Below the pieces are notes generated by a model. That model searched no databases. It was not told the DNA's origin and saw only the letters and a program-made list of their open reading frames with translations. From a virus (Duplodnaviria; Heunggongvirae; Uroviricota; Caudoviricetes), in IMG/VR virus record IMGVR_UViG_3300032050_000035: a stretch of DNA of 64,000 bases. One strand, written 5' to 3'. How positions within the stretch are numbered: the stretch's first letter is position 1; the number at the start of each line of letters is the position of its first letter. Both the position numbers and the translations under genes were made by a program. Positions 32,003 to 35,142 of this stretch are shown piece by piece.

Positions 32003-33124
32003 ATGAGAAAGTATAACCAATTTATTTTAGAAAAATTAAATAATGATTTAGTCATCTTATTAGAGGGGTATTTATATTCGACATCCGAATTTCATAGAAA
32101 GATTTCCGAATTATCTAGACAATCTGGTAGAGTGGGTGATATTTCTAAAATCATTGATGAATTCTTAAATAGAAAAGCAGATCCATTTCATCAATTAAAA
32201 GATGATTCAATAACTCAAAACTTTTTTGATACTACCAATCGAGTTGATATGGTTAGTTTCACTATGAATGATAAAGTTCCTAAAGATTGGGATAATGATG
32301 AAGATCCAGATTTGCCATACACATTAGGGAGATCTGAAATGAAAATTGGTAGAGTTTTGAGATCTATTGTGTCTATGATACAAAGTTCAAAATCTATTAA
32401 TTTTAATTTAACCGATAAAGATGTTGAAGACTTTGTGAACGCATATAAATCATTAGAAATAAATGATAAATGGCAGTTTAAAATTGTTAAAGGTGATGAT
32501 ATTATCAAATATTATAACACATCTAATTACTTAAACACTAATGGGACTTTAGGAGGATCTTGTATGGGTGATGCTAGGGGTAAATTAAAACTATATGTGG
32601 AGAATGATAATAAAGTTGGTCTTTTAATTCTACACAATAAAGAAACTGATCAAATTTGTGGTCGAGCTTTAGTTTGGAAACTAAAAAAGTCACCTTGTGA
32701 TGCTAAATATTTTATGGATAGAGTTTATGTAAATAATGATTCTGATGTTATAAAGTTTAAAAATTTTGCTAATGAGAATAAATTTTTATATAAACAGAAA
32801 ATGAATAGTCATACGGAAACAAATGTTTGTTTTTTATATGATAATAAGGAATTTTTTGGCGAAATATCTGTCAAATTAGAAAAATCAAACTTCAATAAAT
32901 ATCCATTCATTGATACACTTTGTTTCTTAAAAGGTAAAAAGTTATCAAACTTACCATCTAAGAATTGTAATTGGTTACATGAAACGGATGGTGGTGATGA
33001 TCAATGTTATGAATGTGATGGTGAATGTTTCTCAAGTTACAATGGAATCTGTGATGTTTGTGGAGATGGTCACATCTTTTTGAAAAGAAAAGGAATTGAA
33101 ACTAAAATAAATAGATTAGTATGA
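32003..33124 (+). CDS. paralogous family A protein, member 2, with leader MRKYNQFILEKL and C-terminal Cys cluster
   Basis: GTLGGSCMGD, GRALVWK, FMDRVYV, YPFIDTLCF blocks; CYECDGEC...CDVCGDGH. Confidence 0.55.
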   Translation: MRKYNQFILEKLNNDLVILLEGYLYSTSEFHRKISELSRQSGRVGDISKIIDEFLNRKADPFHQLKDDSITQNFFDTTNRVDMVSFTMNDKVPKDWDNDEDPDLPYTLGRSEMKIGRVLRSIVSMIQSSKSINFNLTDKDVEDFVNAYKSLEINDKWQFKIVKGDDIIKYYNTSNYLNTNGTLGGSCMGDARGKLKLYVENDNKVGLLILHNKETDQICGRALVWKLKKSPCDAKYFMDRVYVNNDSDVIKFKNFANENKFLYKQKMNSHTETNVCFLYDNKEFFGEISVKLEKSNFNKYPFIDTLCFLKGKKLSNLPSKNCNWLHETDGGDDQCYECDGECFSSYNGICDVCGDGHIFLKRKGIETKINRLV

Positions 33125-34098
33125 GATATATAAAAGAATTTTTCAATTACATAAAAGAAGAATGGTCAAAGAATGAACCAATTCCAGAAATATTAGATAA
33201 AGAAAAAGGATTAGCTGTTTTCCTAATCGGTGCTCCCGGTATTGGAAAGTGCTTAGAATATAATACACCCATTTTAGTGAATAATAAAATGACTAAAATT
33301 GGTAAATTGATAGATAACTATAACACCGAATCAAAAATTGGTGAAATAAATATTCCTGTTAAAAACTTATATGTTAAATCATTAAATGATAGTGGTGAGT
33401 TTGTGGAAAATGAGATTTCGAGTTTATATAGAGGCTATTCAGAAAAGTTAATAAATATAAAAACACAAACGGGTGTTGATATAAAAGTTACACCTATACA
33501 CCCATTATTAGTTTTAGAAAAAAACGGTGATATTATTTGGAAAAAATCATCAGAAATAACAATAGATGATAAGTTAGCCAGACCTAGAATAATAAATAAC
33601 ACTTTTAATAATAAATCAAAAATAAGTAATGAATTATCAAGGATTATTGGTTATTCGTTAAGTGATGGTAATTTTATAAAAAATAAAAATAGTAAATTTC
33701 TAACACTAACAAATATAGATATTGATATAATAGATGATTTTAGAAAATGTGTCGAAAAAGAAAATAAAATATTAACAGTAAAATCTAAAAAAATAAGACA
33801 TAGTGTTCAATATTCAGATGATATTAAATTAGGAAATCGAAGATTTAAAAAAGATAAATATGATTTTATTTCAAATATTTCTGAAATATGTGGTGATTAT
33901 ATTTTTGGCAACAAATCACATAAAGTTAGAATTCCGGATGATATAATATCAAACAGTGAATCATTAAAACATTTCTTAGGTAGTTATTTATCTTGTGATG
34001 GTTCTGTATTTGAAAATAGAGTTGAATATTACACATCGTCATATGAAATGGCTACTGATTTATCTTATGCACTTTTAATGTTTAATTTATTATTATAA
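33121..34098 (+). pseudogene. P-loop kinase gene interrupted by an intein, part 1: N-extein (aa 1-43) plus the intein N-terminal splicing region and LAGLIDADG endonuclease domain; ends at an in-frame TAA
   Basis: Walker A GAPGIGK is followed directly by CLEYNTPILV (intein block A); two LAGLIDADG-like blocks IIGYSLSDGNF and FLGSYLSCDGSVF; TAA at 34096-34098 in the same frame as the downstream ORF. Confidence 0.6.
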
Positions 34099-34572
34099 AT
34101 TAATTCCACCATGTCATCATTTGGTATAAATCCACCAATATTTGTATTAGTTTTTTCAATTGGTTTAATTTTTTTTCTACTACATCTAATATATTTATTT
34201 AATATTTCTCCAAATAAATTAAAATCATCACTTGTTACCCTGACTATATATGATAAAAAATCCTTATTATTTAAATTTGTTTTTTTATTTTTTATTACCG
34301 AATTTATACCAGAAGATGAAACTGGATATAGATTTACTAGAAGTTATAAATATAGAAGAGTAATAACGAAAAAACGTTTTAATAAAATATGTAATTTTTT
34401 AAATGAGAATAATGTTTATATACCAGAAACATATATTAATCATCACAATAACTTATTTTTTGATAAAATAACTAATATATCAACAATAGAACATAATGAT
34501 TATGTTTATGATATAGTCTTAGATAAACATCATAACTTCATAGGTGGTAACTTACCAACAATACTACATAAT
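33250..34572 (+). mobile_element. intein with LAGLIDADG homing-endonuclease domain inserted into the Walker A motif of the host kinase; contains one in-frame stop
   Basis: starts at Cys after GIGK (33250); ends ...[25 protein letters not shown], then Ser (34573) resumes the P-loop as GAPGIGK-SHFVNNY. Confidence 0.7.
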
Positions 34573-35142
34573 TCACACTTTGTGAATAATTATTTACATA
34601 CAAAAAATACAAACATTAAAGACTTCTCAACTGATGATATTTCACTTCTTTACACAAAAGATCCAAATGTTTATTATAAAGGAAAAGAAAAAGAAGAAGG
34701 TGGTAGAACAAAAAATGCGTCTGAATTAAACTTAATGAAGATGAAAGGTTTTATGAAAACTGGTCAAAACTTTATCTATGATACAACCGGTGCTGGTAAA
34801 GAATATACTGATACTGGTTATGAACACATTAAGGATATATTTGATTTAGCAAGAGAGAATGGATATGAAATAGTTTTTATTCACTTATTATCTACATTAG
34901 AAACATCAATTGAACAAGATAAATTAAGATCGAGACACGTTGATCCACACTATATTAAATGGGCTTATGCCAAACAAATGGGTGGTGAAGTGGATGGTGT
35001 TAAGGTAACTGGTAATATGAAAAGATATAAGGAATTAGGACCAGATAAATATTATGTTATAACTTCTATTGATAAAAAATATAAGTTTTATAAATTAGAA
35101 GGAGATAAACTTCTTAAAAGAAAAAATGATAAATGGGTTTAA
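34111..35142 (+). pseudogene. intein-interrupted kinase gene, part 2: intein C-terminal splicing region plus the C-extein P-loop kinase body
   Basis: same frame as 33121 (offset 990 nt); blocks F/[13 protein letters not shown]...ILHN-S; the C-extein SHFVNNY... completes the Walker A. Confidence 0.6.

Follow-up and report, generated by a model that had tools for sequence, protein, structure and literature searches.

The stretch of DNA analysed here, 64,000 nucleotides of IMG/VR virus record IMGVR_UViG_3300032050_000035 (Caudoviricetes; hereafter the window), carries a kinase gene whose Walker A motif is interrupted by a LAGLIDADG intein. The gene is presented as two open reading frames (ORFs) that share a common frame with an offset of 990 nt, ORF1 at 33121..34098 (325 aa) and ORF2 at 34111..35142 (343 aa), and the gap between them consists of the TAA that closes ORF1 and 12 nt. 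An earlier examination of the same letters without database searches (the sequence-only reading) had described this arrangement and, with it, an intein having Cys1, two LAGLIDADG motifs, blocks F and G and a terminal HN followed by Ser; both ORFs and all of these motifs were located. The intein is 441 codons in size (33250-34572) and is positioned between the K and the S of the Walker A motif GAPGIGK/S of a P-loop kinase (slashes mark junctions throughout). Its conceptual removal yields a kinase of 232 aa.

For profile searches of the native sequence, the in-frame stop was masked. Pfam Intein_splicing (PF14890) matched at 72.4 bits (E=4.5e-20, cutoff 35.8) and LAGLIDADG_3 at 41.6 bits (E=1.5e-10); together with the landmarks, these matches are far beyond chance. 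A LAGLIDADG homing endonuclease is nested within the element, which is a canonical intein of class 1; both the intein and its insertion site are observed directly. Cys1, TxxH, HN and Ser+1, which are all of the splicing residues, are intact in the window copy. The second LAGLIDADG half-domain is incomplete in the native sequence, where the profile match ends at position 48 of 82, and the native window has no uninterrupted extein-intein-extein frame. The window copy is a disrupted member of its intein family.

Intein-free relatives of the kinase place the insertion precisely. Two proteins of 232 aa, P0001 and P0002, are 91% and 88% identical, respectively, to the spliced extein across its entire length, and both read GAPGIGKSFF at the insertion site. 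The sequence-only reading had put the insertion inside a kinase Walker A motif, with splicing to GAPGIGKSHF, and had predicted that an uninterrupted allele should exist; each of these points is supported, the last by the two proteins. At the DNA level, the intein-free contig L010 follows the window over 32642-33248 at 84% identity and then resumes at 34579-35142 at 89%, so that the intein is absent there to within a few bases of both edges. The upstream neighbour gene is also common to L010 and the window. The empty-site DNA of P0001 and P0002 is ATCGGAGCTCCTGGCATCGGGAAA/AGTTTTTTCGTCAATAATTATTTA, and the empty site ...GGNATYGGNAAR/WSNYWYTTY... in both is a candidate target of the endonuclease.

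Intact members of the family were sought by comparing the intein, restored as described below, with 5.8 billion proteins. Eight uninterrupted intein-kinase proteins were recovered (P0122-P0129, 589-692 aa, 100% query cover), all of which have GK/C...HN/S at the same position as the window intein.

Comparison with these alleles shows that the stop codon is part of a larger lesion. Past ...SYALLMF, the plus strand reads NLLL, the stop and then INSTMSSFGINPPIFVLVFSIGLIFFLLHL..., a hydrophobic sequence unlike any LAGLIDADG domain, for which no match below E=0.65 was obtained in a protein search. On the minus strand, this 227-bp block reads GINSVIKNKKTNLNNKDFLSYIVRVTSDDFNLFGEILNKYIRCSRKKIKPIEKTNTNIGGFIPNDDMVELIYNNKL, which matches P0122 at 63.5% identity over 74 aa (E=6e-29) and matches 8/8 intact alleles. 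An in-silico flip of 34084-34310 gives one open frame of 673 codons, and only after this conceptual flip is an uninterrupted extein-intein-extein frame present. The LAGLIDADG_3 match rises to 58.8 bits and its cover extends from 5-48 to 5-80 of the 82-position profile, Intein_splicing reaches 78.5 bits, and a multiple alignment shows the restored protein to follow the eight intact alleles collinearly from end to end. By three independent tests, namely frame and profile cover, intact homologues and collinearity, the real coding sequence of 34084-34310 is the minus-strand reading, and it is because of the 227-bp inversion that a TAA and some 75 antisense codons stand in the frame: about 75 codons of the endonuclease domain are replaced by antisense-encoded, largely hydrophobic sequence (Table 1). 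The sequence-only reading had taken a single in-frame TAA for the lesion and had suggested changing it to a sense codon. The TAA proves to be a by-product of the inversion, and such a change would leave the ~75 antisense codons in place without restoring the native intein sequence. Among the three options which that reading offered, namely a degenerating intein, a sequencing or assembly error and stop-codon readthrough, the first is the right one. A separate minus-strand gene within the block was also considered and rejected, as no ORF of at least 40 aa with a start codon lies there.

Table 1. Features of the interrupted kinase gene, with positions in the window
Feature	Position	Strand	Evidence or remark
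N-extein, first 43 kinase codons, ends GAPGIGK	33121..33249	+	1:1 alignment with P0001 and P0002
Collinear N-terminal part of the intein, ends ...SYALLMF	33250..34083	+	Intein_splicing, LAGLIDADG_3; 8 intact alleles
Cys1/block A, CLEYNTPILV	33250-33279	+	Cys directly after GAPGIGK; C44 invariant in 9/9 aligned alleles
Block B TxxH, VTPIHPLLV	33487-33513	+	T124 and H127 invariant in aligned alleles
LAGLIDADG motif 1, IIGYSLSDGNF	33643-33675	+	Asp present at the catalytic position (IIGYSLSDG)
LAGLIDADG motif 2, FLGSYLSCDGSVF	33973-34011	+	Asp present (LGSYLSCDG, from 33976)
Inverted block, 227 bp; minus strand encodes GINSVIKNKKTNLNNKDFLSYIVRVTSDDFNLFGEILNKYIRCSRKKIKPIEKTNTNIGGFIPNDDMVELIYNNK(L)	34084..34310	-	Minus reading matches intact alleles
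In-frame TAA ending ORF1	34096..34098	+	Inside the block; antisense of adjacent ATT-TAT (Ile-Tyr of VELIYNNKL)
ATG opening ORF2	34111..34113	+	Inside the inverted block
Collinear C-terminal part of the intein, EDETGYRF... to ILHN	34311..34572	+	Profiles; 8 intact alleles
Blocks F/G, ending NLPTILHN	34498-34572	+	H483 and N484 invariant in aligned alleles
C-extein, Ser+1 (S of GK/S) to stop, 189 codons	34573..35142	+	S485 invariant; L010 DNA 89% over 34579-35142

The junctions of the block were examined for traces of the mechanism. The restored protein reads LLMF/GINS across the left junction (34083/34084) and NNKL/EDETGY across the right one (34310/34311). Exactly at the right junction, 8/8 intact alleles have four extra residues ([IVLS]KK[IV]), so that about 12 nt were probably lost there along with the inversion. 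Symmetric microhomology at the breakpoints amounts to 1 nt only. The longest local inverted repeat (34114-34140 / 34293-34319, 21/27 matches) does not lie at the breakpoints and is at chance level, being reached in 13 of 40 shuffles. A flip at this repeat was tried and rejected: the TAA was kept, 13 unmatched codons were added and LAGLIDADG_3 gave only 42.9 bits. Given that no significant inverted repeats flank the block, it does not look like a recombinase-driven switch, and the inversion was probably a one-off illegitimate event, either a template switch during replication or the misrepair of a break.

No un-inverted, near-identical allele was found in protein-guided searches of viral_contigs, metagenome_contigs and the protein collections. 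The best full-length matches in the contig collections are alleles of at most 60% identity, and three short C-terminal fragments matched at 55-65%. A scan of viral_contigs and metagenome_contigs for the junction patterns in either orientation gave 0 matches, even to the present junction; these two collections thus do not contain this phage, and the scan is uninformative.

The structural consequences were considered on a model of P0122, in which the endonuclease domain has a predicted local distance difference test (pLDDT) score of ~80-95. There, the block corresponds to a β-hairpin (324-345) and a helix (347-359), both of the second LAGLIDADG half-domain, followed by a linker and a further helix (384-392), and the HINT strands (~49-152 and ~449-469) lie outside it. 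Since the block covers parts of the second half-domain, the model predicts that the endonuclease of the window copy is dead. Translation of the precursor is expected to stop after 325 residues, in which case no precursor capable of cis-splicing would be made. As for ORF2, its first ~67 codons are antisense-derived, and residues ~2-35 of its product are strongly hydrophobic. Scored with a start-context matrix built from 53 long window ORFs, the ATG at 34111 obtains -8.8, against a reference mean of +5.3 and a minimum of -1.35; this is below 53/53 reference starts and corresponds to the 26th percentile among all ATGs. Because of the stop, the poor start context and the hydrophobic leader of ORF2, inactivation of the kinase is the most probable outcome.

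Three features of the sequence show that the event is recent. The 2-kb gene (21-31% G+C) has no other stop or frameshift, and the block and the remainder of the intein are conserved to a similar degree (63% and 60% identity to P0122, respectively). In the extein, the ratio of nonsynonymous to synonymous substitution rates (dN/dS) is low, at 0.076 against P0001 compared with 0.065 between two intact alleles; partitioned to the window's own branch it is ~0.13, which is still strongly purifying. The extein thus shows no clear relaxation of selection.

Overall, we consider it likely that the locus holds a Walker A kinase intein that was recently broken by a 227-bp inversion in its endonuclease domain, and that the kinase is no longer functional. 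The intein family stands uninterrupted at the same kinase site in at least eight related genes. In the lineage of the window, a 227-bp segment in the second endonuclease half has been flipped, probably by an illegitimate event and probably with the loss of ~12 nt at the right junction. Antisense sequence thereby entered the frame, bringing the TAA at 34096-34098 and ~75 nonsense codons, which would kill the endonuclease, end translation after 325 residues and leave the phage without a functional kinase product. Several points weigh against this account. The loss of kinase function is inferred from the sequence, and both the breakpoints and the 12-nt loss are derived from homologues that are at most 60% identical. 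The absence of a second lesion and the purifying branch dN/dS of ~0.13 would be expected after a very recent event and under continued function alike. Furthermore, every recovered copy is of one identical genotype, which offers no post-inversion polymorphism for a selection test.

The source is metagenome-assembled and the evidence consists of assembled contigs, which raises the question of whether the inversion is an artefact of sequencing or assembly and the true genome carries a collinear, intact intein. The same arrangement, however, is found on at least 17 contigs, on which the ORF1 product (P0121) is recorded, and five loci (L001-L005) match the window at 100% identity, with the same inversion, over stretches of up to 6.8 kb. 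These loci stem from three JGI samples (3300008114, 3300021575 and 3300008264), Logan (SRR9661227) and NCBI (GCA_031546785.1). As they represent at least three assembly pipelines, the inversion is not an assembly artefact; in addition, breakpoint repeats of ~1 nt and a chance-level inverted repeat are far below any assembler k-mer and leave no assembler route by which the block could be mis-oriented. The inversion and its occurrence in independent assemblies are direct observations, and an error of the kind allowed for in the sequence-only reading is very improbable. The assembled contigs contain the inverted form only, and this bears equally on the idea that the block is a programmed invertible switch, toggling kinase and endonuclease by phase variation. 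A flip does restore a perfect open frame, but the microhomology is limited to 1 nt, the best 27-nt inverted repeat is equalled by shuffled sequence as given above, a single orientation occurs in all contigs, and 0/8 intact alleles have the inverted arrangement. The 4-residue gap at one junction likewise suggests an imprecise one-off event, and we give the switch hardly any credence.

A different fate for the broken gene would be that of a nascent split intein, in which the products of ORF1 and ORF2, the latter made by reinitiation 12 nt after the TAA, associate and trans-splice into an intact kinase. This is conceivable because the break is confined to the endonuclease domain and linker, which is also where natural split inteins are interrupted, and because it spares the HINT strands and every splicing residue. 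The position of an ATG 12 nt past the stop, the lack of further lesions and the persistence of a purifying-type dN/dS would also agree with it, and phage genes broken within inteins have been argued to be functional and to be intermediates to split inteins (Dassa et al. 2009, PMC2677866). Against this, no reference start in the window scores as low as that of ORF2, whose product begins with ~35 strongly hydrophobic, antisense-derived residues that are likely to aggregate or to insert into a membrane, and the N-terminal fragment would be burdened with most of the broken endonuclease domain. Nor is evolutionary persistence seen, as there is one genotype, the split is not found in any other lineage and 8/8 other alleles are contiguous; on balance, trans-splicing seems unlikely. 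Alternatively, low-level readthrough of the TAA could produce a full-length precursor from which the HINT domain splices in cis, with the scrambled region as an inert insert. The plus frame through the block is indeed open save for the single TAA, and the HINT elements lie outside the block; an open antisense frame in so short a block, however, needs no special explanation. Ribosomes normally terminate efficiently at TAA, neither a readthrough signal nor a suppressor context was recognised here, and the ~75 junk residues are very hydrophobic. Readthrough, the remaining option of the sequence-only reading, found no support and explains nothing that is otherwise unexplained, and we regard it as highly unlikely.

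The intein, the window copy of which was broken by a recent inversion, belongs to a family with the marks of a mobile element. The extein closest to that of the window is P0125 (74%). The closest inteins are those of P0122 and P0123 (60%), the exteins of which are only 51% identical to the window extein. Between P0122 and P0123 themselves, the exteins are 96% identical and the inteins 68%, a discordance that suggests either intein replacement or much faster evolution of the intein. In P0129, both LAGLIDADG motifs have lost their acidic residue and the endonuclease domain is ~60 residues shorter, yet the allele is still encoded in one frame; many related kinase genes have no intein. Patchy presence, discordant intein and extein histories and endonuclease decay form the classical picture of the homing cycle, and in all three respects the family fits this usual cycle.

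The genomic surroundings of these alleles vary. The loci of P0122-P0129 have neighbours that differ from those of the window, and collinearity with the window was seen only for L010 and for parts of L006 (ERZ18671760 scaffold_388, which carries P0002). L006 is collinear with window 24901-29036, with 33106-35142 minus the intein, and with 39153-40861, and it is without window ~29037-33105 and ~35143-39152; the kinase is thus flanked by variable islands. On L007 and L008, a LAGLIDADG_3 ORF (1-323, minus strand) lies ~3.7 kb upstream of the kinase that contains the intact allele P0125. This ORF may be part of a second intein or a free-standing endonuclease.

The host kinase itself is divergent at the sequence level. 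The window extein narrowly misses the cutoffs of the Pfam families AAA_33 (24.2 bits) and Zeta_toxin (21.7 bits), which many of its homologues, annotated as 'predicted kinase', exceed. A search of the kinase sequence against the PDB returned marginal P-loop matches only and had to be complemented by a fold search. A model of P0001 built with AlphaFold from a 65-sequence alignment (pLDDT 88, predicted template modelling (TM) score 0.85) had as its top PDB matches the C. thermocellum Pnkp kinase, T4 Pnk and mammalian PNKP, followed by AvrRxo1, zeta/PezT and PSTK. TM scores were ~0.5-0.7 (~0.5 when query-normalised) at 11-21% sequence identity. By its modelled fold, the host protein is a P-loop kinase closest to polynucleotide 5'-kinases and zeta-toxin-type kinases.

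The window comes from a huge phage that is uncultured, and its closest matches at both DNA and protein level are 'uncultured phage' records of 484-642 kb. Beyond the kinase gene, three genes on the minus strand encode the translation initiation factor IF-3 (35246-35779; IF3_N and IF3_C), a nucleotidyltransferase-like protein (35803-36537; a weak Gad2 / PolyA_pol head match) and a secreted Por_Secre_tail protein (36530-38254). The last of these, a protein with a sorting domain of the type IX secretion system (T9SS), suggests a Bacteroidota host. Two free-standing genes resembling homing endonucleases are also found on the minus strand, at 39692-40525 and 47086-47874, one with GIY-YIG and NUMOD1 and one with NUMOD3; the genome thus contains several kinds of mobile endonuclease besides the intein.

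The kinase begins with MRYIKEFFNY, which the sequence-only reading had singled out as a leader motif, and the motif does recur at the N-terminus of ~15 of the ~91 window ORFs, in the general form M[KR][YWH][IL]K.[FY]..[FY] (for example MKHIKKYDNY, MKWIKSYKKY and MKYLKLFEKF). The ORFs in question are 1091-2224(-), 2226-3131(-), 4036-4665(-), 5460-6908(+), 23663-24172(+), 24603-26279(+), 26276-28183(+), 29048-30199(-), 31373-31984(+), 32003-33124(+), the kinase gene from 33121(+), 40616-42331(+), 42347-42730(+), 53129-53761(+) and 59962-60393(+). They are unrelated in function (NUDIX, kinase and proteins of unknown function), and the motif is also conserved in the kinase homologues of other phages. 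It could be a leader for targeting or packaging, or could reflect a constraint on the translation-initiation region. Elsewhere in the window, two tandem small ORFs on the minus strand are paralogous (62037-62336 and 62333-62632; MTLEELREKSLEEKV... and MTLEELRDRPLEEKV...), and at 49421-50126(-) and 61414-61674(-) there is a run of several ORFs of ~75-85 aa with similar N-terminal halves (...VGKxY...). Both sets have the appearance of small multigene families.

Intein insertion has a documented hot spot in Walker A motifs, as in RFC-S, DnaB, MCM and other proteins (Novikova et al. 2016, PMC4760082). The window intein is of the same class and in the same Walker A location as the known P-loop inteins (RFC small subunit site a, DnaB site b, MCM site a, RadA and V-ATPase A), and the closest solved inteins by sequence are those of archaeal V-ATPase A (7qss, 7qsu, 7qst), Pho RadA and CDC21. 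It differs from them in its host, which is a small Pnk/zeta-like kinase of a huge phage rather than a replication, recombination or ATP-synthase protein, and in that the copy is disrupted. Similarity to the RFC P-loop inteins is probably also what drove the automatic JGI label of P0121, 'replication factor C small subunit', which would then be a mis-annotation. The literature searched contained no report of an intein in the Pnk/zeta-type kinase family. With the window copy, at least nine alleles now make up this previously undescribed family at the P-loop site of a huge-phage Pnk/zeta-like kinase, and they add weight to the preference of inteins for Walker A motifs, which was already known. 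The kinase, for its part, has the GxxxxGKS Walker A motif in common with Pnk, zeta-toxin and AAA_33 kinases, but it has an extra C-terminal β-sheet region and is without a phosphatase or ligase partner domain.

With the degenerating inteins of the homing cycle, the window copy shares a damaged endonuclease domain and intact splicing residues. Endonuclease decay is usually described as a matter of point substitutions and in-frame deletions, with splicing and the host protein left intact. The lesion in the window is of an uncommon type, an inversion that also truncates the precursor, and hence is not neutral for the host gene; nothing relevant on inversions in inteins was found in the literature searched. 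The element is an ordinary selfish one, and the locus offers a clean, datable and unusually clear snapshot of its early decay, with an endonuclease domain destroyed by a small inversion; with the host gene apparently lost along with the endonuclease, it indicates that the decay of an intein can also harm its host. Annotators should note that a small inversion may lie behind what looks like an 'in-frame stop' in an intein; gene callers then produce two hypothetical ORFs.

Should the two halves trans-splice after all, the locus would be a natural intermediate toward a split intein, reached by a contiguous-to-split route that needs no invading endonuclease gene, and would supply a new split-intein pair. 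The nearest precedent is that of fractured genes (Dassa et al. 2009, PMC2677866), which likewise occur in phages, are broken in the endonuclease region and consist of two adjacent ORFs on the same strand, the first with the N-extein and the N-terminal portion of the intein and the second with the remainder of both. There, a free-standing endonuclease gene has inserted and causes the break, bringing its own stop and start signals, and many loci are known, whereas the break in the window is an internal inversion, with a poor ORF2 start and a hydrophobic junk leader, in one genotype.

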